Notes: generated by a model from the sequence alone, not told the origin. A stretch of DNA of 64,000 bases from Patescibacteria group bacterium (GCA_041671325.1 JBAZBR010000001.1:415504-479503), one strand, 5' to 3'; counted from the first letter of the stretch, positions 20,382 to 62,204 are shown. Translations and numbers: made by a program.

Positions 20382-20407
20382 ATATTAAAATATTGTCTGT
20401 TGATTAA

Positions 20408-21901: not shown

Positions 21902-21907
21902 AAATTA

Positions 21908-23008
21908 TCATCTAGTAACTCTTTTTGTTCCCTGACAAGTAATCCCCGCCTCTGGATGTTCGTAAGATTTAATTGATTGAAATCCGCTTTGTCTAAACCA
22001 ATCTTCAATTTCTTCTACAAAATAGTAGTTACTTTTTGGAGTAGCCAATACATCAAAAGAATCATTTAATTTCATGCTAAAGGGAAAATTTGCATAATAT
22101 GAAAATGGTATTTTGTTGCCTAATTTTTTGTTTCCAATTTTTTGAAAAACTTTAGTTAATCCATTAAATCCCTCAACAATTAGTGCGGGGATATAACATA
22201 ATTTCAATAATACTTTTTTCGGGATAAACTTCATTACCGATCTTATTGGTTCATAAATATAAAGTGCCCGTCTATTATGACGACGATTGTATACCCAAAT
22301 AATCATCTGACCACCTGATTTTAATAATTTAACCAAACTTGAAAACCCTACCTGGGGCTGGGGTAAATGATGAAGAACACCGATACTGTAGGCGTAATCA
22401 AAAATTTCAAAAAATGGCATACAATAAATATCTGCTTGAATAATACAAATATGTTCATCGCCTTTGGTCATTTCATAAGCGACTTCAACGCTTTCACCTA
22501 AATCCGTGCCAAAAGCTATATTTGCCCCACAGACAACCGCCTGCTTAGTAAAGCGCCCAGAACCACAACCGATATCAACAACTGTTTTACCTTTCAAATC
22601 ATTAGCTGTAATGTGAGGTCCGATAAAATGTAGAAAATTCTGTTTTTCAAAATTATTTTCCTGGTAAATATTTTTCCATTCAAAAGCAAAACTTGCTCCT
22701 GTTTTTTCTTGGTGCTGAATAAATTTATTATAATCCTTTACATCCGCAACGGCTTCTTGCCACTCAGTTTTAACTAATAATGGCAATTCATTAAGCCAAG
22801 TTCGATAAAAGATTAAATGGTTTCTCAACATTTGTTTTCTTAATTCTTTTACTAACATTCGCGGGATACCATTGATTATTGGGAACCATTCTTGTTTATT
22901 TATCAGCAAACCAGCTGTTATCTGATTATCTTGAGTTTGAAATTTAATCAAGTTTAAATCCTGTTTGGATATTGGCGCTTTAATATAGTTTATAAATTTT
23001 TCCCTCAT
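21908..23008 (-). CDS. Class I SAM-dependent methyltransferase
   Basis: VVDIGCGSGRF motif I, and acidic motif II. Confidence 0.75.
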   Translation of the reverse strand: MREKFINYIKAPISKQDLNLIKFQTQDNQITAGLLINKQEWFPIINGIPRMLVKELRKQMLRNHLIFYRTWLNELPLLVKTEWQEAVADVKDYNKFIQHQEKTGASFAFEWKNIYQENNFEKQNFLHFIGPHITANDLKGKTVVDIGCGSGRFTKQAVVCGANIAFGTDLGESVEVAYEMTKGDEHICIIQADIYCMPFFEIFDYAYSIGVLHHLPQPQVGFSSLVKLLKSGGQMIIWVYNRRHNRRALYIYEPIRSVMKFIPKKVLLKLCYIPALIVEGFNGLTKVFQKIGNKKLGNKIPFSYYANFPFSMKLNDSFDVLATPKSNYYFVEEIEDWFRQSGFQSIKSYEHPEAGITCQGTKRVTR

Positions 23009-23062
23009 ATTTAATTAAGTAAAAATAATGATTAATTGACTAAGCAAAATGCATTTATAAGT

Positions 23063-24184
23063 TTATATTAATTCCTTAAAAAAACGACTTAGTTTAGCAA
23101 CGCCTTGATCGACTGAAAAATAATTATTGACCCGTTGCCTTGCTGCTGCGCCCATTTTTTTTCGCAATGATTCATTATTTAATAATTCTACAATAGCTTT
23201 TGAAAATTTTTCTTCATTTGCTGTATCTATTAGTCGTCCGGTTTCAATAGTTATCACTTCACGGTTTTCAATTGTGTCAGTAATCAATACGGCTCGTTCA
23301 GCCGCCATTGCCTCCAGTAAAGCAACTGACATACCTTCAAAATATGAAGCAATGACGAAAACGTCAATCATTGGGAGAATTGAGGGAACATCATTTCGAT
23401 CTCCAAGAAAACGAACGTGGTTAGTTATTTCAAGTTTAGCAGCAAGTTGTTCCATTTGGCTTTTTAATACACCGCCTCCAATAAAAATCGCATAAACTTT
23501 AGGTGAAGATTTGATAACTATTGGCAGTGCATTTAGAAAACGTTCAACACCCTTTTCAGGACGTAATTTAGAAACTGTTCCGATAATCATAGCATCGACG
23601 GGTAAATCGATTTCTTGTAGAAAAAAATTACGTTTAGATTTATCTGCGTGGGTAAAAAATTGTAAAGGATTTATGCCACATGTAATAACTGTAAATTTTC
23701 TAGCTGGTAAATTAATATCTTCAACAAAAAATCTTTTTACTTCTTCGGAAACGGCAATATATCGATCTACCATCCAATTAGTCAAAACCATTAAACGGAT
23801 TGGGTTTTGAAACCTATCCCCTCTAAATCGGGCAACTAAATAACTTACTATATTTGGTATGCCGCATATTTTACCCCAGACTCTACCAATTAAATCAGCG
23901 TGGATTAAATAAGTAACCAAGACTTGCGGATGATATCGCTTAACTAATTTAAAAAATTTAAAAAATGCATGGGGACTGAAAGGAAAATGCATATTAAGAA
24001 TTGCGGTAGTCAATCCAACGCGCTCATATGCTTCACGCATGGGACCATCACCCCTAAGCGAAATGACAATATGACGAAATTCAGATAATTTAGGTAAAAA
24101 ACTTTCAAGCAAGCGTTCTGCGCCACCTATTTCAAAACAGGTTATTAAATGGAATACAACAGGTTGTTTATTTTTAGTGATCAT
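23063..24184 (-). CDS. GT4-family glycosyltransferase
   Basis: GGAERL...; C-terminal SYFEGMSVALLEAMAAERAVL (EX7E). Confidence 0.8.
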   Translation of the reverse strand: MITKNKQPVVFHLITCFEIGGAERLLESFLPKLSEFRHIVISLRGDGPMREAYERVGLTTAILNMHFPFSPHAFFKFFKLVKRYHPQVLVTYLIHADLIGRVWGKICGIPNIVSYLVARFRGDRFQNPIRLMVLTNWMVDRYIAVSEEVKRFFVEDINLPARKFTVITCGINPLQFFTHADKSKRNFFLQEIDLPVDAMIIGTVSKLRPEKGVERFLNALPIVIKSSPKVYAIFIGGGVLKSQMEQLAAKLEITNHVRFLGDRNDVPSILPMIDVFVIASYFEGMSVALLEAMAAERAVLITDTIENREVITIETGRLIDTANEEKFSKAIVELLNNESLRKKMGAAARQRVNNYFSVDQGVAKLSRFFKELI

Positions 24185-33912: not shown

Positions 33913-36051
33913 TTATTTGACCACTATACTTGCCACCCGCACCCCAGTCTTGGAATTTAAAGTATAAGCTAGGAATTTGACAATTCGTTGCTTGGTTAAA
34001 TTCCTAAAAACCCTGATTTCAGGTTTGGCGCCTTGGCCAGTACCAGTGATAATATCATCTATACCGTCAGAATTAATATCAGCGCTGGCTACATTAACTC
34101 CGCCAGTTTGTGATTTATCATATGCTAACAATTCGCTTAACAGTTTTCCTGAATCGCTGAATACCCTCACTCTTGGCGAACCTTTAATTAAACCGACGAT
34201 TATCTCAATCTTGCCATCTCCATTCACATCACCAGCCGCAATATTTAAGCCTTCTTTAATTTTTAAAGGAAAAGCTCGAAAAGAATTGGCTTGCTTGCCT
34301 TGAATGTCATAAATTGCGACTCTTGGTTCTTTGCTGGCTTTTGAAATTATAATCTCATTCTTACCATCAGCATTGACATCGCCGATGGCTAACCTGACTC
34401 CCCCACTATAACTGGAAGTAAAAGCTGAAAATTGGGAAATTAATAATCCATTCAGATCAAAAATCCTGATGTGGGCTTTACCCGTGTCTGTCCCAGTGAC
34501 TATTTCATCTTTACCGTCTGCGTTAACATCGCCAATGGCCAAGCTGACTCCGCCTTTAAAACTTTTTGCATAAGCATAAAAGCTTGTCAGTTGGTCGCCT
34601 TTTTTATCATAAACTCTGATTGTAGAATCTGCGCCCTTTTGGAAAGCGGTGACAATTTCCATTTGGCCATTGGCATCCAAATCACCTGACGCCACGACTA
34701 CGCCTTTTTGGTTTTTTGAAGAACTCGTGATAAATTGGTTTTGGATTTTTCCGGCTTTAGAATATTCCCTAACTTTAGGCGTATCTCCTGCTTGCGGACT
34801 GGTTAAAATATTAATCTTCTGATTTTGCGCGGCTTTTATCTGGACTAATAAATTTTCTATGGAAAGCCTGCCGCTGCCTAAACTATTTATATAATCAGGA
34901 TTCAAACTGCTGATATCAATGGCTTTTTCTTTTAATATATTTTCAATCTCATCAACCGTTAGGTTCGGAGCCGTAGCCTCTAATAAGGCCGCCGCACCCG
35001 CAACTAAAGGTGAGGCAACTGAAGTGCCATACCAACCGTCACTATTTGTTTCTGTGTAATTCTTGCCTGGCTGGTAAAACAAGGTGCTGTAAATATTTTC
35101 ACCTGGCGCAGAAATGTCTATACATGAGCCATAATTTGAAAAAGTCGACTTAACGTCGTTTTCTCCGACTGAAGCTACGCCAACCACTCCGGAATAACAA
35201 ACTGGGTATTGCGGATCTGTGTCTAAATCTAAATTTTCATTGCCAGCGGCCGCAATTACCAAAACCCCAGCTTTGCGGGCTGACTCAATGGTGGCAGCCA
35301 AAGTCGGGCTGGTGCCAGAACCCACAAAACTTAAATTAATAATTTTCGCTCCGGCATTAACTGCATAGGTTATGCCTTTGGCGACGGTAACCGTATCTCC
35401 CGAGCCGGTGCTGTCTAAAACTCTGACTGGCAAGATCTTTACATTCCAGGCCGTGCCAGTGCCGGCCAGCCCATTATTGCCCCTGGCTCCGATTATTCCG
35501 GCAATAACCGTACCATGGTGGATGCCGGCAGTCGTGGCGCCTTCAGTTACTTGGGGCCTGGGATCATTAGAATTTTCGATAAAATTCCAGCCATGAATAT
35601 CATCAATATAACCGTTAACATCATCATCAAGGCTGTTTGCGGAGGTTTCTTCAGGATTAAGCCAGATATTATCAGCCAAATCAGGGTTGGTGATATCCAC
35701 TCCGGAATCCAAGACTGCCACGGTTATGCTAGAGGCATCGGTTAAAGTATCCCAAGCAATAGGCGCACCGATCTTGCTTAAACCCCATTGCAGGGAATAA
35801 TCCGGATCGTTTGGAATTAAGACAGTCTTATACTTGATATTTTTTTCAACGCGCAGGGCTCCGGGTAGTTTTTTTGCGATTTTCAAGGCTTGGCTTAGAG
35901 TGGGAGCTTTTATTTTTTCTGACTTAATGTTTCCATTTTTTTGCTGGATGACAATATCATAAGCATTTGTCTTGGCTTCTGCGGGCAACACAAAAATAAA
36001 GAATCCTGTGATTACTAAGAACCCCAAAACCGGCCTTAAGTATTTTTTCAT
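33913..36051 (-). CDS. Secreted subtilisin-like serine protease (S8) with C-terminal FG-GAP/VCBS repeat domain
   Basis: Signal peptide; S8 triad motifs VAVLDSGVD, HGTVIAG and GTSVASP; at least five GDVNADGKDEIV-type repeats. Confidence 0.85.
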   Translation of the reverse strand: MKKYLRPVLGFLVITGFFIFVLPAEAKTNAYDIVIQQKNGNIKSEKIKAPTLSQALKIAKKLPGALRVEKNIKYKTVLIPNDPDYSLQWGLSKIGAPIAWDTLTDASSITVAVLDSGVDITNPDLADNIWLNPEETSANSLDDDVNGYIDDIHGWNFIENSNDPRPQVTEGATTAGIHHGTVIAGIIGARGNNGLAGTGTAWNVKILPVRVLDSTGSGDTVTVAKGITYAVNAGAKIINLSFVGSGTSPTLAATIESARKAGVLVIAAAGNENLDLDTDPQYPVCYSGVVGVASVGENDVKSTFSNYGSCIDISAPGENIYSTLFYQPGKNYTETNSDGWYGTSVASPLVAGAAALLEATAPNLTVDEIENILKEKAIDISSLNPDYINSLGSGRLSIENLLVQIKAAQNQKINILTSPQAGDTPKVREYSKAGKIQNQFITSSSKNQKGVVVASGDLDANGQMEIVTAFQKGADSTIRVYDKKGDQLTSFYAYAKSFKGGVSLAIGDVNADGKDEIVTGTDTGKAHIRIFDLNGLLISQFSAFTSSYSGGVRLAIGDVNADGKNEIIISKASKEPRVAIYDIQGKQANSFRAFPLKIKEGLNIAAGDVNGDGKIEIIVGLIKGSPRVRVFSDSGKLLSELLAYDKSQTGGVNVASADINSDGIDDIITGTGQGAKPEIRVFRNLTKQRIVKFLAYTLNSKTGVRVASIVVK

Positions 36052-37319
36052 TTAGCTGTTACGTCTAAAGTAACGGGCAAACTTTCTTCTTTTCCATTTC
36101 TAGAAAACTGGATGGTTATTGTTGCTCTTGCGGACTGTGCTTGAATGATTTCAGCAACTGATAGCGAACCATTGATTTGCTGATCATTAATTTTTTTGAT
36201 TATATCGCCCGACTTCAAGCCAGCGCGTCCAGCCGGAGATTTTGCGCCAACCGCTGGAATATTTGCCGTATCTTCGCTGACTAAAAGCGCACCTATATCA
36301 CCAATATTGGCTGGGCTTAACAATAAGCCTTTCGCAACTTGCAAATCTAAATATTTAACGCCTAAAACGTTCCTGGTTACAGCACCCGTCTTATTGAATG
36401 AATCTAAAGCGTTGCTGATTATGTTCCCAGGAATTACCTCACCGTCTGTGCCGGTATGAATGCCGATTATCTTGCCGGCTAAGGAAAATGTCGAAACGCC
36501 AGGAATTTCTACGGTATTCTGAGTTTGGAAAAAATTGTTCAGCTTTTCGCTGCTTTCAATTAAATCAGCGCGGGTATTAACCCTTTTCATTCTTAATGAA
36601 ATCAGGCCTGTCAAAGCGACATTGATGGATTGGGTAGTGGTTTGGCGGCTAATGTCTAAAACAGTCTGAGGAACAATCAAGGCGCTTGCATCAGCAAAAT
36701 CCAAGGCTGGAAAGCCTTTGCCGCTTATTTTAAACAAGACAATATCTGATGCTGGATCTGGATAAAAAACTTTGGTCAAATATACGGTTTTATCACTGGT
36801 TATAATGGCAATTTCTTTGCTTAAATCTGGTATGGCTTTTCTGGTGGTCACGCCTATTCCGTCTTCAGTCAGTAACGTTCCAATGCCGCGGCGGTCGCCA
36901 GGCAAATAAAGCTGGTCTAATAATGCCGCGTTCTTTTTTACTGGCACTTGCCTGACATAAATTGAAACGACATTTGGAGAGAGCTTGTCAACCACCTCGG
37001 CGTAATTAGTAATGGAGCTTTCTTTCTTGGGCACAGATTTTATCACTGAAATTTCTTGGTTGGTATTCCCAATCCATTTTCCAAGCCATTGCCATTGTTC
37101 TTTACCAAACATAAAAAACATCGCCCCGACCAAACCAGCCAAAAAACTTATTATGACCGTTAAAATTAAAAAACTTGAAGAAAACCGAGTGATGTTTGGC
37201 TTGGTGATGGGCTGGGGTTCTTTCAAAAAAGCTTCCACTTCTGCTTCTTTTTCATCGTTAGCTCGATTTTTTGGAGAAGTAGGAATAGGCTTGGCTTTCA
37301 TAGTTTTTATATAAACCAC
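36048..37319 (-). CDS. Membrane-anchored HtrA-like protein (trypsin-like domain + PDZ domain)
   Basis: N-terminal TM; C-terminal PDZ (GALLVSED...AGLKSGDIIKKINDQQI). The trypsin-like region has D (DIVLFKI) and S (PGVSTFSL). The His motif is not evident (TTRKAI where TNNHVV is expected). Confidence 0.55.
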   Translation of the reverse strand: MVYIKTMKAKPIPTSPKNRANDEKEAEVEAFLKEPQPITKPNITRFSSSFLILTVIISFLAGLVGAMFFMFGKEQWQWLGKWIGNTNQEISVIKSVPKKESSITNYAEVVDKLSPNVVSIYVRQVPVKKNAALLDQLYLPGDRRGIGTLLTEDGIGVTTRKAIPDLSKEIAIITSDKTVYLTKVFYPDPASDIVLFKISGKGFPALDFADASALIVPQTVLDISRQTTTQSINVALTGLISLRMKRVNTRADLIESSEKLNNFFQTQNTVEIPGVSTFSLAGKIIGIHTGTDGEVIPGNIISNALDSFNKTGAVTRNVLGVKYLDLQVAKGLLLSPANIGDIGALLVSEDTANIPAVGAKSPAGRAGLKSGDIIKKINDQQINGSLSVAEIIQAQSARATITIQFSRNGKEESLPVTLDVTAK

Positions 37320-45577: not shown

Positions 45578-46282
45578 TCACAGCTTGGTGATGTGCAAAC
45601 AAACATCGATGCCGTGGCCAATGGCAGGCGCCGTCAAGATGACGCTGATTGTTGAATTTGATGGCAATGCCAGGTCTATCGAAAACTTTTTATTTTCCAA
45701 AGACCATTTATAGGTTATGCCGTCAATCGTAACCAGTAAATCCTGCAAAGGCTGGTCATTCTGGGTTTCAGCGCTGAACTCCAGTCGATACGAACCGATT
45801 GGGTTCATGAGAAGCCAATTGATGACCTTATCGCACCCTTTCAGGTGCCCGCAGAATTTTTCACCGAGGTTGAGAGTGTCAGTGACGTAAACCGTATCCA
45901 CATGGCTACTATCGATAACGATCAGAGTAGACTCAGGCGGAACAACCCAGACGCCGTGTGAAGCTGTGGCAGTTTGGCCATCAGTCGAATTGACCAGCAG
46001 GCCAAAATCGAAATATCCGGTATCACTCAACCTGCCCTCAAAATAAGGCAAGTGAGTAATTACAGAATCTTTCAGATACCAGCTTGCTTGGTAGGGCTGC
46101 TGTCCACCGGTAATAGTTGCGAAAAGAAAAAACTTCTCGCCGACGTAGACAGTGTCAGGCCCCAGGATTCCGGCTTCCAGTTTCCCATACACTTCGGGTG
46201 AAACTGGATTGACCTGTTTTTCCGCGCAACCGGCAAAGATTGCCAGAAACGCCACGAACACGAGGAGGATAAACTGCTTCAT
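45578..46282 (-). CDS. Putative lipoprotein (signal peptide + AIFAGC lipobox-like cysteine), unknown function
   Basis: AGGAGG 9 nt upstream of the ATG. MKQFILLVFVAFLAIFAGC signal. Confidence 0.5.
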   Translation of the reverse strand: MKQFILLVFVAFLAIFAGCAEKQVNPVSPEVYGKLEAGILGPDTVYVGEKFFLFATITGGQQPYQASWYLKDSVITHLPYFEGRLSDTGYFDFGLLVNSTDGQTATASHGVWVVPPESTLIVIDSSHVDTVYVTDTLNLGEKFCGHLKGCDKVINWLLMNPIGSYRLEFSAETQNDQPLQDLLVTIDGITYKWSLENKKFSIDLALPSNSTISVILTAPAIGHGIDVCLHITKL

Positions 46283-47283
46283 TAGTGTTTACCTCCTGAG
46301 ATCGTGAACTGATAGGCAATAATCACACGAACGTGCGAATTCTCCCATTCAACTTCTTCGGTACCCCGCTGGTACACATACACTGGAGTCCAGACAGCAG
46401 CCAGAACCCAGCTTTTTGCGAAAGTCACCTGAGCCCCAAGCTCGGGTCCAGTTCGTTTCTCACCCCAGGGACCGTCGAAGTACCGGTTAATTTCGCTTCG
46501 TTGCCCACCAAAAATGAGTTCAAATGGTTTCTCCAACCAAGGTCGCACAAGAACATGGACTGAGCCGTATCTATAGATGTAGCTCATTTCTTCCTTGCAG
46601 TATGTACGATCTTCGCGGTAGAAAGAATAACCGCCCTCCAAAGCAATACGGAAGCGGTCATTCCCCCACTGAAGACATGCTATTGGCATAAAGCGTTCAG
46701 CCGGCGTATACGCTACGCCAATGCCGAACCAAATCCGGTTGTCGAAGTGATTAATCACTTCAGTTTTATAATTATTAACAACCGGCGCTAGTTTTGGCTG
46801 GGCGGCAAAAGCCGAATCAATTGAGTGCTGCATTTCTGCCGGTGTAACATACCGGTCGAACTGCACCACTTCGATAACGACTTTTCGATGATCGCCACCG
46901 ATTTTTTTCTCGTTATCCGGGTCAGGCATTCGTGGCCAGATCAAATCGCGAGGAGTGCCGCATTCTTTCAAATGCAAAGCGGCCCATTCATAGCGACTGA
47001 CCTTTAAAGCAGCTTCCAGCACGTCTTCCTTAGTCGGCGTATCGAATTTCAATCCGTCGACATAAGAATAAATCTTGATATAACGATGCTGGAATGCACA
47101 GACCGAATCAGTCAGCATTTGGAATACTGCCTGATTCTTTTTAGCCAGTTCCACCTGGCTCATGCCTTTTCCTGGTGCAAATCCAGAAATTTCTTTGCTT
47201 ATGATCACGGTTTCAGCCAAAGCCGAAACCGAAAAAATCACAAGCATGAGAAACGAAAGCAAGACTATCGTGAGTTTCTTCAC
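46282..47283 (-). CDS. Secreted protein with beta-strand-rich C-terminal half (possible outer-membrane beta-barrel)
   Basis: GTG start preceded by GGAGGT. Signal peptide MKKLTIVLLSFLMLVIFSVSALA. Alternating hydrophobic pattern in the last ~170 aa. Confidence 0.45.
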   Translation of the reverse strand: MKKLTIVLLSFLMLVIFSVSALAETVIISKEISGFAPGKGMSQVELAKKNQAVFQMLTDSVCAFQHRYIKIYSYVDGLKFDTPTKEDVLEAALKVSRYEWAALHLKECGTPRDLIWPRMPDPDNEKKIGGDHRKVVIEVVQFDRYVTPAEMQHSIDSAFAAQPKLAPVVNNYKTEVINHFDNRIWFGIGVAYTPAERFMPIACLQWGNDRFRIALEGGYSFYREDRTYCKEEMSYIYRYGSVHVLVRPWLEKPFELIFGGQRSEINRYFDGPWGEKRTGPELGAQVTFAKSWVLAAVWTPVYVYQRGTEEVEWENSHVRVIIAYQFTISGGKH

Positions 47284-52423: not shown

Positions 52424-55153
52424 TTACTTAACCAAGAGCATTTTCTTGGTTTGGGTGAAAGATCCAGCAGACAAGCGATAAAAATAAACCCCCGAAGCGT
52501 ATCTGGAAGCCTCCCAGGTTTTGGCGTACTCGCCCGCTTCCTGGTATTCATTCAATATCGTTTCCACTTTCTGGCCCAGAAGGTTATAGACTTCCAGGCT
52601 GACTTCGCCGGCTTGAGGCAAAGTATAACTGATGGTCGTAGTTGGGTTAAAGGGATTGGGATAATTCTGGCTCAAAGCAAATTCTTTAGGCAGAGAAACA
52701 TCTTCCTCTGTTTCAGTATTTTGCTTCATTAATCCAGAACCGCTGGCGTTGAACTTGCCCATGATAAATCCATTAGTATAATCCCAGCCATAGCCTTCAG
52801 CCCGCCACCAGTAAGCCTGGTACAGAAAGCTGGAACCCGTGGACAAGAAAGAGTGGATAGCGCTGGAATACTGGCCATAGCGACAGGCCATGACGACATC
52901 AGCGTAACCGTCGCCATTGATGTCGCCCATTTGCATATACGGCATGGCATCCAGACTGTAGGAATCAAAATGCCACCACCAGCCTCGGTAATTAAAGCCT
53001 GAACCCGTGGAAAGAAAAGCCAGAAGCGCAGTTTCGCTTGGGCCATAACGGCAGGCCATGACTAAGTCTGATTTGCCGTCGCTATTCAAGTCGCCCATTT
53101 CCATGAACTTCATGGCATCTAGACTGAACCAGCCATCAGCCCAGAACCAGTACGGCACATAATTGAAGTAAGTGCCGTTGGTAAGGAATACATGGAGGGC
53201 GGTACTGGCTGGACCATACTTATAAGCCATGACAATATCGTCCCCGCCATCACCATTCAAATCGCCCGCGCTTACGAACTTGACGGCTTCGGCGCAGTAC
53301 CAGCCCGGCGCATGCCACCAGCCTTCATTACCCTGGTATATGAAATTCGTACCAGTGGAAAGCAGGACATGGATGCGAGTATCGCAACTACCGTAATTAT
53401 AGACTACGGCGATATCATCTTTGCAATCGCCGTTAAAATCCCCAGACACCGCGCCCTTGATGGCATAAGTGCAATAGCCGTTTGATTGCCACCAATAAAC
53501 CTGGTATTCAAAGCTTGAACCCCGGCTTAGAAGCATGTGAATGCCCACGCTGGATTCGCCATATTTGTAAATCATGGCAATATCCGTCAAGCCATCGCCG
53601 TTATAATCCCCGGCTATGCTCTTAAAAACGTACTGCAGGCAATAATTATTGAGGATTTTCCAGCCATCATTGCCTTGGTAGGCGAAGTTAGAGCCGTTGG
53701 AAAGCAGTACGTGCGCGCGGGTTTGGCAACCGCCGTAATCATACAAAACCGCCAGATCAGACTTGGGATCAACGATGCCAGTTGAGATGTGCACCTGGAT
53801 TGGCCAGACTTGCGTACCCGCAGCATTGTAAGCGTAAACAGTTCCCCCGCGCTCTTCCATCCGGCCAGTCTTGAAGTATTGGACATTGCCTTCGCGATCG
53901 CGGGTTGGCGCGCCAATGACCCAAGCCCCGGCTTCCTGGATGTTGGTATAGGTATCCAGGAAGTTTCCATACAAATAATAAGCTTCGTTGGTGGCTTCGG
54001 GATTGGTGTAATTGCGGGGGTCATAGAAAATCATGCCCCTGCCCCGCGCTCCCCAATTGAATTCTTGGACGCAATAATCCGTGGCCCGGCCAAAAGCTGG
54101 CCAATTGGAGACGACCTTTCCCATCGCCTCGCCAACCATTTGCCTGGCACCGTTTCTTTCATACGCCCGAGCAATCAAGTATGAGTGCTGGTTATCCCAG
54201 CCGGAATTTGTCCAGCCTGGCGCGCAATTCGGATATTGGTTTACGGAAACCGAACTGCCGTTCCAGTACAAGTAGCCTTTTTGGAAGTCCTGCCTGGCAT
54301 TGCCGTAACCCGCATACTCATTGTTTATAGGCATGCCCAGCGAACTTTGCGGACCATTCAAACTGTTCCACTTGCCGTAAAAGCCGGTTTTTACCACGTA
54401 GGCTTTTCTGGCACCGCCTAAAGCGTCATAAACAATGGCACAAGCACCATAAACAGTACCGAAATAATCCTCACGATAACAGCGTCGGGCGCAGTTATTG
54501 GCATCATAGCGGTCGTTGCTGTCCCAATTTCCCGGCCACCATGCCACGTTACTGACCTTGTTCCCAATGCTGCTGCCATGACGGACTTTCTCAACTTCAA
54601 AGATGTTGCGGTTGAGAGAAGTGTAACGATGTTGACCATCATCTGAATAAGAACAGTTCGATGGCCCAGTTGGCGTCCCGATATCCTCGAAATTCCACGG
54701 AATCGAACTTCCATTCACCGCGGTTTGATGTTGGTAGTGAATATGTGGCCCAGTTGAATTTCCGGTAGTACCACACATTCCTATGACTTGCCCTTGCACA
54801 ACGTACTCGCCAACTTTAACTACGACGCTTTGCAAATGAGCTAAACGGTCATACGATGATTCACCTATTTTTATCTCAACGGTATTGCCCCAACCATCGT
54901 TATAACCACCACCATCATACACGGCAGCTACAACTCCCGAATTCGACGCTAAAACTGGTTTGTTTAAGTCACTTGTACTGATTGTCCCCCAATTGAAATC
55001 GAATCCATATCTGTAGACACTTACATGTCCACATTGATCCTGTCCGCGGCTGCACCACCAAGTTTCCCCATACATAAATGGGGCTTTCGTACCAGCTATA
55101 GCAGTGGACACAATAGCCATAGCCAATACGACAACAGTAAATACCTTCTTCAT
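52424..55153 (-). CDS. Large secreted multidomain protein: N-terminal M23 (LytM) metallopeptidase domain, central FG-GAP/VCBS repeat region, C-terminal T9SS-type sorting domain (Por secretion tail)
   Basis: AGGAGG 9 nt upstream; signal peptide. M23 motifs H..L......G..V..G..IG..G.TGNSTGPHIHY. At least six GDxNGDG repeats. Por-tail C-terminus (NYPNPFNPTTTISYTLP...GVYFYRL). Confidence 0.7.
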   Translation of the reverse strand: MKKVFTVVVLAMAIVSTAIAGTKAPFMYGETWWCSRGQDQCGHVSVYRYGFDFNWGTISTSDLNKPVLASNSGVVAAVYDGGGYNDGWGNTVEIKIGESSYDRLAHLQSVVVKVGEYVVQGQVIGMCGTTGNSTGPHIHYQHQTAVNGSSIPWNFEDIGTPTGPSNCSYSDDGQHRYTSLNRNIFEVEKVRHGSSIGNKVSNVAWWPGNWDSNDRYDANNCARRCYREDYFGTVYGACAIVYDALGGARKAYVVKTGFYGKWNSLNGPQSSLGMPINNEYAGYGNARQDFQKGYLYWNGSSVSVNQYPNCAPGWTNSGWDNQHSYLIARAYERNGARQMVGEAMGKVVSNWPAFGRATDYCVQEFNWGARGRGMIFYDPRNYTNPEATNEAYYLYGNFLDTYTNIQEAGAWVIGAPTRDREGNVQYFKTGRMEERGGTVYAYNAAGTQVWPIQVHISTGIVDPKSDLAVLYDYGGCQTRAHVLLSNGSNFAYQGNDGWKILNNYCLQYVFKSIAGDYNGDGLTDIAMIYKYGESSVGIHMLLSRGSSFEYQVYWWQSNGYCTYAIKGAVSGDFNGDCKDDIAVVYNYGSCDTRIHVLLSTGTNFIYQGNEGWWHAPGWYCAEAVKFVSAGDLNGDGGDDIVMAYKYGPASTALHVFLTNGTYFNYVPYWFWADGWFSLDAMKFMEMGDLNSDGKSDLVMACRYGPSETALLAFLSTGSGFNYRGWWWHFDSYSLDAMPYMQMGDINGDGYADVVMACRYGQYSSAIHSFLSTGSSFLYQAYWWRAEGYGWDYTNGFIMGKFNASGSGLMKQNTETEEDVSLPKEFALSQNYPNPFNPTTTISYTLPQAGEVSLEVYNLLGQKVETILNEYQEAGEYAKTWEASRYASGVYFYRLSAGSFTQTKKMLLVK

Positions 55154-55223
55154 TGTTACAGACCTCCTGAGACATAGTCTCGGTTTAAGTTACTATTTAA
55201 TTGTCAACGTACGTTTTTTAGAT

Positions 55224-55970
55224 TTACTTAATTAAAAACGAACTAATAATGTTGTTAAATGTATTTAAAGCCGAAGTCCTAATATCCCCACCTGAGTAGA
55301 GCCGAAGAAAAATGAATTTTTTTTCATTGTAAACAATTTGAGACATCAGTTGAGGAACAGAATTACTAGCGAAAAGCTTACTTCCAATTCCATGGTTATA
55401 CCCAACTGAAGTACTTTGCGTTACCGATATACCCGCAAACTGAATTTGTCTCTCTGTATGACTAATTTCCTGACCCAAATCTTGAGCAAATTCCCAACCC
55501 GCCACTTTTGTATTTTGAACACCTATATCGATATATGATTGATTTAAATATAATCTTGTCCAAGGATCGCGAACATCTTCTGTGGTTATATCACCGTTGA
55601 GTAGAGAAATTCTAAGTAGGTCATTATTATCAACGGCTGAAATTTTCCAATCTTTTGGATATTTAAAATTGATACCATAATTATCGTTGACATATACCTT
55701 CCATTCACTAGTATTTACATTACTATTCGCATTTCCATTAAATCCCGAATTTACGTTCAAGTTTGAATTTACGTTAATTGGGGAATTAATATTTACATTC
55801 TGGTTAGTTTTATTAATAATATTGTCGTTATTGGTATTAATATTCTCTTGTTTTAACAAAAAATATCCGACGATTAATAAAGCGGCAATAATTACCCCAA
55901 ATATTACCCAGGCGATAATTGTGTTTTTTGGGGTATTTAAGGGCTGATTTTGAGGGTTATTTTGGTCCAT
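55224..55970 (-). CDS. Membrane-anchored hypothetical protein with Asn-rich low-complexity linker
   Basis: AT-rich, no Shine-Dalgarno site (host-like). N-terminal TM IIAWVIFGVIIAALLIVGYFLL. Confidence 0.5.
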   Translation of the reverse strand: MDQNNPQNQPLNTPKNTIIAWVIFGVIIAALLIVGYFLLKQENINTNNDNIINKTNQNVNINSPINVNSNLNVNSGFNGNANSNVNTSEWKVYVNDNYGINFKYPKDWKISAVDNNDLLRISLLNGDITTEDVRDPWTRLYLNQSYIDIGVQNTKVAGWEFAQDLGQEISHTERQIQFAGISVTQSTSVGYNHGIGSKLFASNSVPQLMSQIVYNEKKFIFLRLYSGGDIRTSALNTFNNIISSFLIK

Positions 55971-56039
55971 AAATGATTAATTAATATTTGCTTAATTTAA
56001 GGCTATCACACTTTTTGGCTAAAAAAGACAAAGTTATCC

Positions 56040-56330
56040 ACGATAAAACCGCGACGGCGCGACGGCGCTCGGGTCACCGCGAATGTCGGGTTTCGCGTGC
56101 TATTAGTGGGTTATAGCCCGCTTCACCCTTTATTCGCGTGCCCCTCTACCCCATCCCGCCGTATGGCGGGACGTGCTCACTACGTTCCGCGCCACATCTG
56201 CGGGGATCCCCTGATTTTTAACCAAATGTGCCGCTCTTCTTCACAAACCCGTGCTCGTCACGCTGCTGCGAGCCTGCGCTCCTGTCTTGTGGGGACCCCA
56301 AAATAAGAAACCTTAAATAATCCTGCATTC
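56040..56330. other. About 290-nt GC-rich (~60%) noncoding block in AT-rich surroundings; candidate structured RNA or decayed foreign fragment
   Basis: No protein-like ORF. Multiple short GC stems (ggggatcccc, gcgacggc x2). Confidence 0.3.
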
Positions 56331-56597
56331 CTGATTTACAGGGACCCAGATACAAAAAATAAACCTCGACTTATCTTAGCCGAAACCTTTTCACCACAAC
56401 GATACGGAGATCTACACCCAAACCCAACCCCCCTGTTAAACCGCTGGTTCCAATTTCACATCCACGGGTAAAATACACCACGTCATTGCGAGTGCAAACG
56501 AAGCAACCCCATTTAATATTGAATCAAATATATTAAACAACTATAATTACAAAACTAAGCAAACATAATATTTATAAATCCTTTTCATATATAAAAC

Positions 56598-57350: not shown

Positions 57351-58106
57351 TCAAACTGCCAACAACATGCGCTCAAGCAATGGGACTAGATAATCAACGC
57401 AGGTGTGGGTAGTCGAAAATGTACAGATAGTATTTTTAGTTACTCTCATAATTTCGAGCTGGGAGAATTCTGGGCGCTCATTCCGCTGGAGTAATTCTTC
57501 AGTATACAGACGAAAATGTGCACGTAATTCGTCACCGGTGAGAGCTAAACTCACCCGAAAAATTACTGCAAGGAAATTATGATCACCGCCACTTTTTAGT
57601 AAATATGGGGTAATAGCGTTAACCTTTTGCGAAGTATGTACACTTAGACCTACTTCTTCTTCAATTTCCTTCGAGATATTGCCTAGGATGTTAAACTTTC
57701 CATGATCTACATCAGAAAAATCTAAGCCACCACCAACGCACTGAAACCTGTTGGGCGTCGATGTGTGAGAAGCCATTTTGCCAAAGGAGACAAAACCATC
57801 AGATGTTTCGAGAATTGCCGATGTATAGAGAACCTTACAAGCATATTCTTCTTGTAATTCGTTTTCGAGCGTAAACATATAATGCGCATAATCTGTTTCA
57901 TCTAATACAACTTGAAGCTGATCATTTTGCATGTTTATTTTACTAACCGTAAATACTACACCACGGCGTAATGATGGCCTGTTACCTATTAAAAGCTCCC
58001 AATTGCGTTCAATTTGATAAACAATTTTTTCTGGAAGAGCAACTTTCTTACCAGAAAACACTACATCTATTCTGTGTGCGACGGGTTGTAAAAGTACTGT
58101 TTTCAT
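57351..58106 (-). CDS. Nudix-fold hydrolase-like protein (degenerate Nudix box)
   Basis: KEIEEEVGL matches the REUxEExGU helix of the Nudix box, with R replaced by K. Upstream G/E positions are non-canonical. 4-bp overlap with the SIR2-like gene. Confidence 0.45.
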   Translation of the reverse strand: MKTVLLQPVAHRIDVVFSGKKVALPEKIVYQIERNWELLIGNRPSLRRGVVFTVSKINMQNDQLQVVLDETDYAHYMFTLENELQEEYACKVLYTSAILETSDGFVSFGKMASHTSTPNRFQCVGGGLDFSDVDHGKFNILGNISKEIEEEVGLSVHTSQKVNAITPYLLKSGGDHNFLAVIFRVSLALTGDELRAHFRLYTEELLQRNERPEFSQLEIMRVTKNTICTFSTTHTCVDYLVPLLERMLLAV

Positions 58107-59350
58107 TTTATCTCCTTTAAGTTTCTCATCAGGGCTAAGAACACATCACCAGCGCATTTCTTTACCAAAGCATCATCATTTTGAACTGACTCTAAAGGAT
58201 ACGAGATGAATTTACCATTTATCAAGTACCCTTCTGGATCAATGTACAAAACTTTTAATTTCTTTCGCCTTGCTGCATGCTGAATTTTTCTACGATCCGC
58301 ATGACTTCCGATAACAATTAGACTTTTTGCCTTTGGATGAAATTGTATATTAGGTATTAAATGTTGTTCATCAAACCTTCTTACCATTAGTTCTTTTAAG
58401 CCACTTTTCGTAGCAAGACCATCAAAATTATTGGTAATGATTGACCCAACAATATACCCCTTTTTGTGCAAATTTGTCAAGTGTTTATAGAATTGTGATG
58501 GCTTTGCGGTTAAGCATGTAATATACATATATGTCATTTGATGAAAACTTTCTTTTTGATCAATAATGATGTTCCTGACAAACCGATCTTCGCTTAAGGA
58601 AAGCGTAAACTTACCTGAAATTGGATCCCCAACTGAATAAACACTATGGAGATAATGAAGGGGTGGAATTTTTGCTTCAATTGCTGGCCCACAACCTAAT
58701 TCAACTTGAGCCGGAAAAAATTTAATAAGTTCAGAAACATTATTGATTATTTTTGGATTTCCGCGCTTATCTTTTTTTCTCATACCGCTGTTAAGTATTG
58801 TAAAAGCACGATTTATAAAAAATGGATGTGGGCGTTTATGAGAAAATATTGATATTTCCAAATTTGAATAGTTTTTAGGAAAAATCCTTTTAACATGTAA
58901 ATCAGCAGGATGATTTTTAAATATGTTTAATTCAATATTTAGATCACTTTTTGAAAAACTTTGAATTTTTTTATCTAAAGTTTGGAAATGTTTATTTCTT
59001 GTCCAATTGTTTTTTATAAATAAAGTATTTAGATCTTTTAAATATTGATTTATTTCTTGATTTGGAAAACAATAATTCAACCAAATAGTTGATCTCTGCA
59101 AAGCTAATGCTTTAATGTTGTGTTTATCTTTAACTAAACCATAAGTATGTCGGAAATGAATCATCCTGCGACGTCTGTCATTTTTTTCATGATATCCCGA
59201 AAAAAAGGCATTCTCTTTTTCTTGGGTTCTTCTCCAAATACCCTCATCAACACTTCTGTCCCATTGAAAATTTTTACCAGAATAATATTTCTTCCAGGTC
59301 TTAATATCTTTAACTTTTAAGCTAATTATGTATGGGAATTTAATCGTCAT
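58103..59350 (-). CDS. SIR2-family (sirtuin-like NAD+-binding) domain protein with ~200-aa unknown N-terminal domain. No Zn-ribbon or canonical HG motif.
   Basis: ELGCGPAIEAKIP (GAGIS.ESGIP-like), AKPSQFYKHL...IITNNFDGLATKSG (PN..H...TQNIDGLH..AG-like), LIVIGSHA (IGTS-like). Confidence 0.6.
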   Translation of the reverse strand: MTIKFPYIISLKVKDIKTWKKYYSGKNFQWDRSVDEGIWRRTQEKENAFFSGYHEKNDRRRRMIHFRHTYGLVKDKHNIKALALQRSTIWLNYCFPNQEINQYLKDLNTLFIKNNWTRNKHFQTLDKKIQSFSKSDLNIELNIFKNHPADLHVKRIFPKNYSNLEISIFSHKRPHPFFINRAFTILNSGMRKKDKRGNPKIINNVSELIKFFPAQVELGCGPAIEAKIPPLHYLHSVYSVGDPISGKFTLSLSEDRFVRNIIIDQKESFHQMTYMYITCLTAKPSQFYKHLTNLHKKGYIVGSIITNNFDGLATKSGLKELMVRRFDEQHLIPNIQFHPKAKSLIVIGSHADRRKIQHAARRKKLKVLYIDPEGYLINGKFISYPLESVQNDDALVKKCAGDVFLALMRNLKEIK

Positions 59351-59387
59351 ACTTCCATTTTGCTTAATCCAAAACCCAACCCTCTCC

Positions 59388-62204
59388 CTAAATCGCCGCC
59401 TCCAATTTCACATCCACGGGTGTAATCGGCAAAGTGAATTGGAAAGTGCTGCCCTTGCCTGGGCCATCGCTTTCCACCCAAATCTTGCCGCCATGCACTT
59501 CCACAATCCTTCGGGCCACATACAAGCCCAAACCCGAGCCGTCAGGATTCACCTGGGCAATGCCAAAACCCCGCACGAATTTAGTAAACAAGCCTTTAGC
59601 CTCTTTGGGATCCAAACCCCGGCCCGAGTCTTTAACTTTCACGTGCACCCACTCGCCTTCCCTTTCTGAAGTCAAGATTATACTGCCTTTTTCCGTATAC
59701 TTGATGGCATTATCAACCAAGTTCAAAATCACATCCGTGATCTTGTCGTCAATAGTCAGCAGGGGTAAAGCAGTTTTGGGTTTCTTGTATTCCAATTTCA
59801 ATTTCTTGTCTTTGGCAATCTTGTCCAAAACCTGCAATTCCTTATTAATCATGTCTTCCAATTGCATTGGCCGCTTGTCCAAAATCAATTTCCCGCTTTC
59901 AATCTTGGAAACATCCAAGAAGAGATTGATCAAACGGATCATCCTTTGGCTGGCATCCAACAAGCTTTCGATTATCTTTTTCAAGTCAGGCGTAAGTTTG
60001 CCATAATCCCCTTCCATCAACATGGAAAGGTAACCCATAATGCCGGTCATGGGCGTGCGCAATTGGTGGCTGGCAATAGAAACGAATTCGCTTTTGGCTT
60101 GGTCCAATTCTTTCAAATGCACATTAGCCTCAGCTAACTGTCCATTAGTTTCTTCCAGCCTTCGGACCAATTCAATGTTTTGGTAAACCACGCCAGTCTG
60201 GTCAGTGATTGCCTGCATCATGTTATAGTCATTCCGGCTAATTTCACCTTTGGGTTTGGCCAACAGGAAATCAATCGCGCCCACCACTTCATTTTCCGTC
60301 ACGATCGGCACGGCCACCACGGATTTAATGCCCGCCATCTTTTGCATGGCTTCGCAGCCTTCTTTGGGTACTGGTGGGCTGAAAAAATCCGATAAGTTTG
60401 AACTTACGCGAACTTGCCTGGCTTTCATAGATTCAATTGAAAGGGTTTTATCCACATTATAATCACCCCAATATTCATTAAAAGGCTTGGGCAGTAAAGC
60501 CATGACTTTATCCGTCAGCTTGGTTTTGGTAATGGCTTCTGGAAAAATTTTTCGTCTGGATTCACCCAAAAACAAAAGAATCCCTCCCACAAAACCCAGC
60601 TCGGTATAAATGGCGTCAACGATAGATTGAGTGACTTTCTTGAATTCCAAAGTCTGGGTAATGAGATTGGTAACTTTTTGCACCGCATCCAAAAACCGGT
60701 TACGGTCTTCCAACTGCAAGTTCTTTTGTTTTAACTTTTCCGTGGCCAGGGCAATATCTTTTTCCAATTTGATATTAAATAACCGGATTTCTTCATATAA
60801 CCGGGCTTTTTCCAAAGCACTGGCCAATTGCGGCCCTAATAATTGCAGGAGGTTTAAATCTTCATCAGAAAAAGGATCCCCGGATAACTTTCCACCCAAA
60901 ACTAAAATTGCGGCAATACGATCTTCTGTTAAAACTGGAAAAAGCACTGAAGCGTTCAGTTTATCCAGTTCTTCTTTGGATTTTTCCAAAGAAGTTCTTT
61001 GTTTGTCATCAGTGGTGTCTTCAATTTTCCGCTCCAAGGCTTCCAAAACTACGGTATCTTTTTGCTTTTTAATATACTGAGCCAACGCGCTGTTTCGCGT
61101 TAATACTGTTTCTTTATTACCGGTTGGCAGTTGGTTTACAAAAATCTCTCCACCTTGCCCTGGCAAAATAATCTTTGCTGATTGAATCTTTAAATCTTGA
61201 TGTAATTTAGTTTCAACTTCATCTAATAATTTATCAAGGTCGATTTCTTTATTAATGATTTCAACCAGATTTTGAAGTATTAATTGATAATTAACCTTAG
61301 CTTTAAAAAATAAGTTGTCTGTTATCTTTCCAATATAACTTTTCAACGGATCAAAAATAATAACTAAAACTATTGAAAGAAATATTGCGATTGCTGTTTG
61401 ATATGTTTGATTTGAAACTTGCTGTGGAAGAAATACCGCAAGACTAACAATAAAAACTGAAACTAATAAAACGACTAATGAATAAGTTACCGTCCGAATA
61501 ACAACAAAACGAATATCCAGTAAATGATGTTTCGCAATTGCATAAGCCGTAAATGCTGCGACAAAAATTGCGGCAAATGGCCCAACTTTAGTAAGTTCAT
61601 CAAAACCAGCAAAAGTTGGTAGAATTATATTGGTTAAACTTGCTATTACACCAGAAATAAGAACACCCATAAATAAATACGCAATTTGCGTGCGACTTGT
61701 ACCTTTTGCTTTACGAAAACTTTGAATTGTTCGACCAAATGCTAATGACATGTAAAATATAAAGTACGCGGCAAAAACGTAATAACCAGCACCGGGTGTA
61801 AATAATACACGTCCACCTAATCCTTGATTCTGATCAAATGAAATACTGTTAATAAAATAATTTGTTGGTACTAATAATAACAATACTATTGTTGGCAAAG
61901 GAAGTAATACCAATAACCGTTTAGTTAGAACTTTTCCCCTTAATGGGAAATACAATGTAAATAAAAAGAAAAAGTAGGGAATTAAAATTGGTCCTAAAAA
62001 TGAAGCTTTGCTCCAAAAAATTGCAGTTCCTAAAGAGGTTGATTTATCAGTTAAGTAGTCAGTTATTACCCATAATGCAGATGAAATAATAAATGCAAAA
62101 AAAGTTTGATTAATTTTACTGTGACTATTCCTTGAAATAATAAAAATGCCCAAAAATATAAATAGAATTCCAACTACTATTGACGTTTCATTAAGTGTAA
62201 TCAT
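59388..62204 (-). CDS. Sensor histidine kinase: N-terminal multi-TM sensor, two GAF domains, HisKA + HATPase_c
   Basis: H-box SHQLRTPMTGIMGY; N, G1 and G2 boxes (VDNAIKYT, DSGRGL, GSGLGLYVARRIVE). About 7 N-terminal TM helices. Confidence 0.85.
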   Translation of the reverse strand: MITLNETSIVVGILFIFLGIFIISRNSHSKINQTFFAFIISSALWVITDYLTDKSTSLGTAIFWSKASFLGPILIPYFFFLFTLYFPLRGKVLTKRLLVLLPLPTIVLLLLVPTNYFINSISFDQNQGLGGRVLFTPGAGYYVFAAYFIFYMSLAFGRTIQSFRKAKGTSRTQIAYLFMGVLISGVIASLTNIILPTFAGFDELTKVGPFAAIFVAAFTAYAIAKHHLLDIRFVVIRTVTYSLVVLLVSVFIVSLAVFLPQQVSNQTYQTAIAIFLSIVLVIIFDPLKSYIGKITDNLFFKAKVNYQLILQNLVEIINKEIDLDKLLDEVETKLHQDLKIQSAKIILPGQGGEIFVNQLPTGNKETVLTRNSALAQYIKKQKDTVVLEALERKIEDTTDDKQRTSLEKSKEELDKLNASVLFPVLTEDRIAAILVLGGKLSGDPFSDEDLNLLQLLGPQLASALEKARLYEEIRLFNIKLEKDIALATEKLKQKNLQLEDRNRFLDAVQKVTNLITQTLEFKKVTQSIVDAIYTELGFVGGILLFLGESRRKIFPEAITKTKLTDKVMALLPKPFNEYWGDYNVDKTLSIESMKARQVRVSSNLSDFFSPPVPKEGCEAMQKMAGIKSVVAVPIVTENEVVGAIDFLLAKPKGEISRNDYNMMQAITDQTGVVYQNIELVRRLEETNGQLAEANVHLKELDQAKSEFVSIASHQLRTPMTGIMGYLSMLMEGDYGKLTPDLKKIIESLLDASQRMIRLINLFLDVSKIESGKLILDKRPMQLEDMINKELQVLDKIAKDKKLKLEYKKPKTALPLLTIDDKITDVILNLVDNAIKYTEKGSIILTSEREGEWVHVKVKDSGRGLDPKEAKGLFTKFVRGFGIAQVNPDGSGLGLYVARRIVEVHGGKIWVESDGPGKGSTFQFTLPITPVDVKLEAAI

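Follow-up and report, generated by a model that had tools for sequence, protein, structure and literature searches.

The locus and its domain architecture

The gene pair described here lies in a 64,000-nt stretch of the genome of a Patescibacteria group bacterium (GCA_041671325.1, JBAZBR010000001.1:415504-479503), the whole of which is referred to below as the window. The gene at 52424-55153 (-) encodes a predicted secreted peptidoglycan hydrolase that ends in a C-terminal domain (CTD) of the kind known from type IX secretion systems (T9SS), and the gene directly upstream, at 55224-55970 (-), encodes a small membrane-anchored partner. Together with their relatives the two genes are read here, as a view held to be probable if only narrowly so, as a mobile, polymorphic bacteriolysin cassette with an immunity-like partner that circulates among Patescibacteria (the candidate phyla radiation, CPR) and the Fibrobacteres-Chlorobi-Bacteroidetes (FCB) group. 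The features of the pair are as follows (pLDDT, predicted local distance difference test score of the structural model).

52427..52663 (-): T9SS type A sorting domain, residues 831-909, all-beta, ending ...SGVYFYRLSAGSFTQTKKMLLVK
52664..52753 (-): probable flexible linker, residues 801-830, with pLDDT <50 for 803-830
52754..53758 (-): six-bladed FG-GAP beta-propeller, residues ~466-800; presumed lectin/target-recognition module
53804..54631 (-): middle domain of LGFP-like repeats, residues ~175-450; presumed cell-wall-binding module
54674..55090 (-): M23 (LytM-type) zinc endopeptidase, the exchangeable "warhead", assigned by Pfam, NCBIfam and PDB matches and by alignment
55091..55153 (-): Sec-type signal peptide, residues 1-21, with cleavage predicted from the sequence between ...STAIA and GT
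55154..55223 (-): 70-nt spacer with AGGAGG 9 nt before the hydrolase ATG, read from the sequence
55224..55970 (-): partner gene, 248 aa, candidate immunity/inhibitor protein

The open reading frame (ORF) at 52424-55153 (-) specifies 909 aa from an ATG start, with the AGGAGG Shine-Dalgarno sequence 9 nt 5' of it. A first-pass annotation of the window had proposed an M23 peptidase with FG-GAP repeats and a T9SS tail, and this architecture was confirmed by scans in which PF18962, TIGR04183 and Peptidase_M23 all scored above their curated cut-offs. Among the Pfam matches, Peptidase_M23 (PF01551) covered residues 60-144 with 64.2 bits (cut-off 28.7), and FG-GAP (PF01839) and FG-GAP_3 (PF13517) reached 70 bits (22.1) and 57.2 bits (26.9). 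The region between M23 and FG-GAP was absent from the earlier description; it is called LGFP-like because LGFP (PF08310) scored 20.6 bits, below its Pfam cut-off of 22. Modelled by AlphaFold together with 17 relatives (mean pLDDT 81), the protein consisted of the M23 domain, a middle domain of ~280 residues, a six-bladed propeller, a disordered linker and a compact all-beta CTD. The model has a hydrophobic N-terminal helix at residues 2-15, a similar N-terminal segment was found in all family members, and export via Sec is predicted.

By sequence, the M23 domain matched TagE, lysostaphin, ShyA and LytM in the PDB, and zoocin A was also matched. Residues H106, H137 and H139 were invariant across the 17 relatives and D52 was nearly so (at least 90%), and from these conserved positions the domain is predicted to be catalytically competent. 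The middle domain is the best-aligned region common to the family; it matched the LGFP domain of C. glutamicum PS1 (sequence, E 4.5e-6) and 6swz (Foldseek), and actinophage Lysin A proteins were structural neighbours of this region. The propeller was modelled as six repeats of ~57 residues at pLDDT 85-95, with five DxNxDGxxD calcium-type loops. In Foldseek its top match was 9oee_A (E 4e-19), the lectin UmbA4 in complex with teichuronic acid; PorZ of the T9SS, integrin alpha propellers and the fungal PVL lectin 2bwm, which binds GlcNAc, were matched as well. On the modelled fold, the propeller may be a lectin.

Both curated models identify the tail as a true type A Por/T9SS CTD. Por_Secre_tail (PF18962) matched residues 831-905 with 41.9 bits (Pfam cut-off 27), and TIGR04183 matched the extreme C-terminus with 47.7 bits (NCBIfam cut-off 23) over model positions 2-70 of 72; six beta-strands were modelled at 838-907. 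A CTD match alone does not establish that the window protein is a T9SS substrate, and annotators should not infer "T9SS substrate" from TIGR04183 alone.

Host and contig

The NCBI label of the host is Patescibacteria, and the exact protein is on a contig of 618,411 bp. An independent Logan assembly also carries the exact protein and spans the partner-hydrolase junction, and the window copy was identical in at least three independent assemblies. Relatives of the LepA encoded in the window (60-87% identity) were almost all Patescibacteria where named, including Patescibacteria, Parcubacteria and Kerfeld-, Falkow-, Komeili-, Kuenen- and Buchananbacteria, the remainder being unclassified "bacterium" entries. 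By label, contig and LepA relatives the host is a CPR bacterium, in agreement with the CPR-like context noted in the first-pass annotation. A chimeric assembly or mis-binning was rejected: the junction recurs in the Logan assembly, two NCBI metagenome-assembled genomes (MAGs) as well as JGI records have the genes, and relatives also occur on Patescibacteria contigs of 200-650 kb.

In the ~87 kb of the 618-kb contig that were inspected, neither outer-membrane genes nor genes of the T9SS core (GldK/L/M/N, SprA/Sov, PorV, PorU) appeared, and from that portion the host genome probably lacks a T9SS. As far as these ~87 kb show, the contig does not belong to a T9SS-bearing lineage, an origin that had been raised as one that would make the tail unremarkable. 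GC content was 0.42-0.48 over 40-56 kb of the window and 0.33-0.39 in the flanks. LepA and MurJ have the same raised GC as the hydrolase region, and core genes 250 kb off on the same contig have a GC of 0.42-0.45. The raised GC as a foreign island or a block from a diderm donor was rejected, since native LepA, MurJ and the distant core genes match it; what stands out, by its low GC, is the polysaccharide locus at 1-39 kb.

Relatives and second copy

Full-length relatives, either of the same architecture or with CHAP replacing M23, were common in Patescibacteria MAGs. A profile scan (M23 plus middle domain) of GTDB species representatives gave 18 loci, comprising 11 from Patescibacteria, two from Ignavibacteria, one from Zixibacteria, one from a MAG labelled Gammaproteobacteria and three unclassified. 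Many full-length CPR relatives lie on contigs of 200-650 kb, with CTD-bearing members on Patescibacteria contigs of 203, 651 and 618 kb. A neighbour-joining tree built on the middle domain had CPR members interleaved with FCB ones and placed the window protein with one Ignavibacteria and several CPR members (bootstrap 80); the deepest branches were CTD-less and all Patescibacteria. No relative was found among 2.9 million viral contigs (IMG/VR), whether by protein or by family profile. With none there, no PHROG match for the neighbours and BFVD structural matches at domain level only, a phage origin was rejected.

The host genome has a second copy (P0003, with P0247 as its longer isoform), 54% identical, intact and full-length, 257 genes away on the same contig. 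This copy (locus L027, record 265158-287878; loci and proteins are cited by L and P numbers where they need to be told apart) is within an apparent integrative element just downstream of ftsX that carries two large serine recombinases, a Toprim primase, DUF5659, GmrSD_C and SocA/Panacea. A related cassette in L005 directly follows ftsX, and the two loci suggest that the site after ftsX is an insertion hot-spot rather than an operon. FtsEX was considered as a functional partner of the hydrolase; that idea is weakened by L027, in which the recombinase-bounded element lies between ftsX and the cassette.

Conservation of the C-terminal domain

The CTD was 52-69% identical in 13 of 16 relatives, and the M23 domain 23-46% in most. 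Where synonymous sites were unsaturated, the ratio of nonsynonymous to synonymous rates (omega) for the CTD was 0.17-0.31, and the pairs concerned include those in which both members are labelled Patescibacteria (L004-L025, L011-L019 and L001-L019). In a Parcubacteria sister pair the CTD was kept at 84% identity and the catalytic domain at 38%. Ten of the 12 Patescibacteria tails were indistinguishable from those of Ignavibacteria and Zixibacteria, with all type A motifs kept (QNYPNPFNP...LGQ...SG[VI]YFYR...KKMxLxK). The CTD was missing in the CPR members L015, L021, L022, L024 and L026 and divergent in L016 and L023. An unrelated 609-aa fn3-like protein encoded beside mraZ (L004 18843-20672 (-), Patescibacteria GCA_041650915.1) also has the tail, with 31.8 bits against a cut-off of 27, and the CPR tail is therefore not restricted to the hydrolase family. 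No further CTD protein was found among the window proteins.

Judged from these comparisons, the CTD is the best-conserved part of the protein (omega about 0.2), under purifying selection and not decaying. A caveat that weakens the argument from constraint comes from GC content at third codon positions (GC3), which is high over the scaffold in both copies of the host genome (0.56-0.62 in the window copy, 0.54-0.71 in L027; genome-typical ~0.4-0.48); it may be that both copies arrived fairly recently and that some of the CTD conservation was earned in other hosts. No publication was found linking a T9SS tail to CPR.

The partner gene

In the 248-aa partner a short cytoplasmic N-terminus and one transmembrane helix are followed by a linker rich in Asn and by an extracytoplasmic domain, at the start of which is TSEWKVY..NYG..FKYP. 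A homologue was directly upstream of the hydrolase gene on the same strand in nearly all of ~25 loci, including those from Ignavibacteria and Zixibacteria, and from shared strand and conserved adjacency the two genes are probably co-transcribed. Family members are 200-310 aa in length, with an N-terminal transmembrane helix, an Asn-rich linker and a domain opening DTSxWKTY..YG...YP. Four of five members had a weak PsbP_2 match (best member E-value 0.002), and the window partner scored 17.9 bits against PsbP/Mog1-like PF18933, under the cut-off of 27 and a lead only. The small membrane proteins encoded downstream of the hydrolase had previously been put forward as candidate immunity factors, and that proposal was not borne out; the conserved neighbour is the upstream gene at 55224-55970.

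Module exchange and mobility

Exchange of modules was most clearly resolved between L003 and L007. Their DNA was 89% identical from hydrolase codon ~281 to past the stop codon and 79% identical over the upstream spacer and the first ~54 codons of the partner, and no similarity was found across the partner ectodomain, spacer, signal peptide and catalytic domain (M23 in one, CHAP in the other). Scaffolds carrying M23 and CHAP were 82-94% identical. L011 and L029b (P0017) have 82-84% identical scaffold and CTD with catalytic domains at 38%; their partners were 54% identical at the N-terminus, and the ectodomains do not align. L027 and L029a have a common warhead type, and their partners of ~310 aa align end to end.

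Across 153 cassette pairs, which are not phylogenetically independent, five of the six with similar ectodomains also had similar catalytic domains, the sixth being CHAP-CHAP (Fisher p = 3.8e-5), and ectodomain similarity was not associated with middle-domain similarity (p = 0.25). The window copy is itself mosaic in composition, with GC3 stepping from 0.22-0.35 in the partner to 0.37-0.39 in M23 and 0.52-0.62 over codons ~140-810 (middle domain and propeller).

Tandem cassettes in the order partner, hydrolase, partner, hydrolase were present in L029 (1084-5717, a Parcubacteria MAG) and L028 (2-5079, an unclassified contig). In the second hydrolase of L028, FG-GAP repeats come after an N-terminal domain of a different kind. 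Large serine recombinases were encoded within a few kb of the cassettes in L003, L007, L010, L012, L013, L014, L018 and L027. These recombinases form one family (36-60% identical across CPR and FCB loci), and three of the recombinase-linked loci have the order recombinase, partner, hydrolase.

Interpretation

The preferred reading, a mobile bacteriolysin cassette with an immunity-like partner, is built on what was observed: the architecture, the host, the conserved pair, the module swaps, the mosaic composition, the paralogy, the tandem arrays and the recombinase linkage. In the mechanism proposed, the large protein would leave the cell via Sec and its N-terminal M23 domain would cleave peptidoglycan cross-links. 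The LGFP-like repeats and the propeller would hold the enzyme on the cell wall and probably pick the target wall via surface glycopolymers; that the best structural match of the propeller is a target-selecting umbrella-toxin lectin counts for this part. The partner is anchored in the producer membrane and its ectodomain faces outward; there it would most likely bind the cognate catalytic domain and neutralise it, by which the producer's own wall would be spared. Partner ectodomain and catalytic domain would be exchanged as one unit while the scaffold stays the same, with M23 and CHAP, or different types of M23, taking each other's place in the manner of polymorphic toxin systems. Where the host is a diderm of the FCB group, the CTD would send the enzyme outside through the T9SS. 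Movement off the producer's periplasmic wall argues for an outward-directed function. We infer enzymatic activity, immunity, a non-self target and any function of the CTD in CPR. The proposal in the first-pass annotation of a secreted lytic effector gains support, in that the protein is a predicted Sec-exported peptidoglycan hydrolase whose family appears to behave like an outward-directed lytic effector.

Several observations weigh against this reading. The first zinc-ligand histidine is displaced: Arg48 occupies the canonical HxxxD position, a conserved H43 lies 9 residues before D52, and canonical HPGWD was found in the P0003 subgroup only. The swapped segments are adjacent, and joint replacement could therefore come from physical linkage alone, in addition to the non-independence of the cassette pairs. 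The window protein and P0008/L028 are 71% identical over M23, yet their partner ectodomains are not detectably similar (25 bits), so that a prediction of the immunity reading failed for the closest warhead relative of the window; likewise, in 11 of the 16 pairs with similar catalytic domains the ectodomains are dissimilar, and any specificity would therefore be loose or fast-evolving. The FCB identity of L012, L014 and L018 comes from MAG labels only, and in the flanks of these loci no outer-membrane genes were found, only recombinases and mobile and defence genes. The window copy has no recombinase nearby, and cassettes lie beside cell-division genes in L004 (the division and cell wall, dcw, cluster) and L005 (FtsEX).

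The last point leads to an alternative that we regard as rather unlikely, namely a housekeeping autolysin with a membrane-anchored regulator. By analogy with FtsEX-EnvC, PcsB and CwlO, the enzyme would remodel or split the cell's own wall in growth and division, the partner would tether or gate it, and the CTD and propeller would be merely wall- or surface-binding modules. M23/LytM proteins are classic division hydrolases, and few autolysins have been recognised in CPR genomes. The L004 cassette adjoins MraZ, MraW, FtsI and a Mur ligase, that in L005 adjoins FtsE, FtsX, an S11 carboxypeptidase and YceG, the second copy in the host genome begins just after ftsX, and MurJ is 9 kb from the window copy. 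However, the family is multi-copy, tandem, patchily distributed and linked to mobile elements, and the swapping of catalytic domains of different chemistry on one scaffold is unusual for a core division enzyme. The T9SS tail in FCB hosts would also take the enzyme out of the periplasm, where the own wall lies, and the parting of ftsX from the L027 cassette by a recombinase-bounded element suggests an insertion hot-spot. Linkage to mobile elements would also fit a wall-breaching hydrolase, like VirB1, CwlT or an endolysin, that serves transfer, entry or release of an element or phage. Several cassettes are flanked by recombinases, a Toprim primase, relaxase-like genes (Replic_Relax) and restriction systems. 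Actinophage Lysin A and M23 peptidases of phages are among the structural neighbours, and monoderm conjugation systems have CHAP or lysozyme hydrolases (10.1101/2025.01.22.634366). This explanation is very improbable: the viral contigs held no relative and the neighbours no PHROG match, no cassette has VirB4, VirD4 or capsid genes within 10 kb, no element genes surround the window copy, and a signal peptide, a lectin-like propeller, a T9SS tail and a dedicated partner are atypical of VirB1-type enzymes.

A different question is whether the tail does anything in CPR. It could be a functionless passenger on a scaffold recently acquired from, or cycling through, T9SS-bearing hosts, with tail or protein neutral or decaying in CPR; the conserved look of the CTD would then come solely from selection in other places. 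In favour of this, the scaffold GC3 (window copy 0.56-0.62, L027 0.54-0.71, genome-typical ~0.4-0.48) is not ameliorated, the same serine recombinase family is linked to the cassette in CPR and FCB loci, some CPR members have no CTD or a divergent one, and no T9SS gene was seen in the ~87 kb. We nevertheless consider a passenger improbable. Both paralogues are full-length and intact, the window copy recurs unchanged in at least three assemblies, CTD omega was 0.17-0.31 in Patescibacteria-Patescibacteria pairs, the Parcubacteria sister pair has a CTD at 84% against a warhead at 38%, and 10 of 12 CPR tails kept every type A motif. The unrelated fn3-like Patescibacteria protein has the tail as well, and the GC-rich scaffold is closer to GC-rich Patescibacteria (L005, GC 0.55) than to the FCB loci (0.47-0.49). 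An earlier suggestion that the protein would probably be non-functional cargo in a host lacking a T9SS is likewise at odds with two intact paralogues, many full-length CPR relatives, a CTD omega of ~0.17-0.31 and no motif drift.

Type IX secretion extends beyond the Bacteroidetes to the wider FCB group. A T9SS CTD has been treated as diagnostic for type IX secretion and hence for diderm FCB bacteria. The system was described as confined to Bacteroidetes (PMC7073777), and CPR have been proposed to have no outer membrane (10.1101/2025.01.22.634366). Here the CTD is conserved, multi-copy and constrained in ultra-small bacteria thought to lack both an outer membrane and a T9SS. A canonical type IX tail persists intact in a lineage expected to have no export route, and no publication addressing this was found. 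For this Patescibacterium the leading guess is that the CTD serves surface retention or docking. The broader proposal, that some Patescibacteria use the type IX CTD without a canonical T9SS, through an unrecognised CPR pathway of surface retention or display or by docking onto T9SS surface components of an FCB host such as PorV, is tentative and has in our estimate a small chance of being right. If the CTD docks onto an FCB host, the shared cassette would mark a direct arms race between CPR parasite and FCB host.

If the tail works in CPR, a sorting or docking mechanism awaits discovery; otherwise the cassette is a clear case of a weapon module crossing very distant phyla on one family of serine-recombinase elements. 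Such cross-phylum movement would hint at physical association of CPR with Ignavibacteria- or Zixibacteria-like hosts. With its naturally occurring exchange of M23 and CHAP warheads, and the matching exchange of partners, the cassette offers a system for studying attack and defence by episymbionts at exposed walls.

Neighbouring genes and other features of the window

Besides the pair, the window contains a polysaccharide-synthesis locus, LepA, MurJ (9 kb away from the hydrolase), a subtilase, an HtrA-like protease and a 7TM-GAF histidine kinase. No tRNA or Rfam match that could mark an attachment site was found near the cassette. The gene at 46282-47283 (-) encodes a secreted 333-aa protein for which a word-indexed search returned itself only, and 1.84 billion representatives searched in full with HMMER yielded 14 relatives; every named relative is from Patescibacteria or Kerfeldbacteria, some on contigs >1 Mb. 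No Pfam, NCBIfam, PDB or outer-membrane protein (OMP) family match was found for it, and one relative had a sub-threshold match to OmpA (peptidoglycan-binding) in its N-terminal half. The C-terminal half shows alternating hydrophobic strands, is rich in beta structure and ends in ...GGK, not an aromatic beta-signal; a single-sequence AlphaFold model (pLDDT 35) was unusable. The protein had been taken for a putative outer-membrane beta-barrel and a sign of a diderm donor; the second of these views is not sustained by a tiny CPR-only family with no OMP match.

No gene of the 43-52 kb block of the window was common to any other cassette locus, and the ORFs of this block had no Pfam, NCBIfam or PHROG match. 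The ORFs downstream of the hydrolase were rejected as immunity genes, with no synteny with other loci and no family match.

Directly upstream of the partner gene is a GC-rich non-coding stretch of ~300 nt at 56035-56350 (-), which ends in a terminator-like hairpin (56063-56048) and has a predicted folding energy of -127 kcal/mol (z = -4.2 relative to shuffled controls). It had no Rfam match even at E <= 1, and was not found upstream of the cassettes of other loci; an unannotated structured RNA or leader is a candidate identity for it. A repeat of ~53 nt, ACCCGTGGATGTGAAATTGGA...GGGTTGGGTTT, occurs in two intergenic copies that are 81% identical, both (-), at ~56417-56469 (upstream of the structured stretch) and ~59369-59421 (between a SIR2-like gene and the histidine kinase). 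Two genes with a 4-nt overlap occupy 57351-59350 (-); one product has 415 aa and a sub-threshold SIR2 match (21.3 bits against 24), the other has 251 aa and no family match, and the two could be a defence pair.

A second FG-GAP protein of the window, an S8 subtilase with FG-GAP_3 repeats and no CTD, is encoded at 33913-36051 (-), with a 4-nt overlap to a gene at 36048-37319 (-) for an HtrA-like protease (Trypsin_2 and PDZ). Within the polysaccharide locus GC is lowest at 19251-24184, where the flanking genes have a GC3 of 0.21-0.25 and a 497-aa ORF at 20408-21901 has a GC of 0.26 and no Pfam match; this segment looks like a horizontally exchanged glycan-variation segment.

Comparison with known systems

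The hydrolase resembles T9SS type A cargo, such as gingipain RgpB and other surface or secreted enzymes of Bacteroidota, in its Sec signal, in an all-beta CTD of ~80 residues and in the terminal GxYxxR...KKMxLxK; unlike that cargo, it is encoded by a Patescibacterium, a member of a group proposed to have no outer membrane. M23 joined to an LGFP-type wall-binding region recalls actinophage Lysin A and the Corynebacterium PS1 LGFP domain, although the window protein is not phage-encoded and its Pfam LGFP score is below threshold (20.6 against 22). The Streptomyces umbrella toxin UmbA4 (PDB 9oee; PMC13274773) has a comparable six-bladed beta-propeller, and its lectin selects targets via a wall glycopolymer in an antibacterial system, but UmbA4 is a separate lectin subunit of a multiprotein particle, has neither hydrolase nor CTD and is 15% identical in sequence to the window propeller.

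With lysostaphin/Lif, zoocin A/Zif and other bacteriolysins (class III bacteriocins) the cassette has in common a secreted M23 enzyme with a wall-targeting module, an adjoining gene that would confer self-protection and frequent mobility. Immunity in those systems is a FemABX-like wall-altering enzyme, whereas here it would be a membrane-anchored PsbP-like binding protein, and the cassette adds an LGFP-like domain, a lectin-like FG-GAP propeller and a T9SS tail, with a warhead that is either M23 or CHAP. TANFOR polymorphic toxins have been proposed as T9SS substrates (PMC7073777). Like polymorphic toxin-immunity systems in general, the cassette combines a constant trafficking and targeting scaffold with an exchangeable toxin domain, forms tandem arrays, appears to spread horizontally and has an adjoining small gene that tends to vary with the toxin (a significant association that is confounded by linkage and to which the window and L028 are an exception). 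It differs from them in being mainly a CPR family limited to wall hydrolases and in having its warhead at the N-terminus and the immunity-like gene upstream, an arrangement that we ascribe to the export signal occupying the C-terminus.

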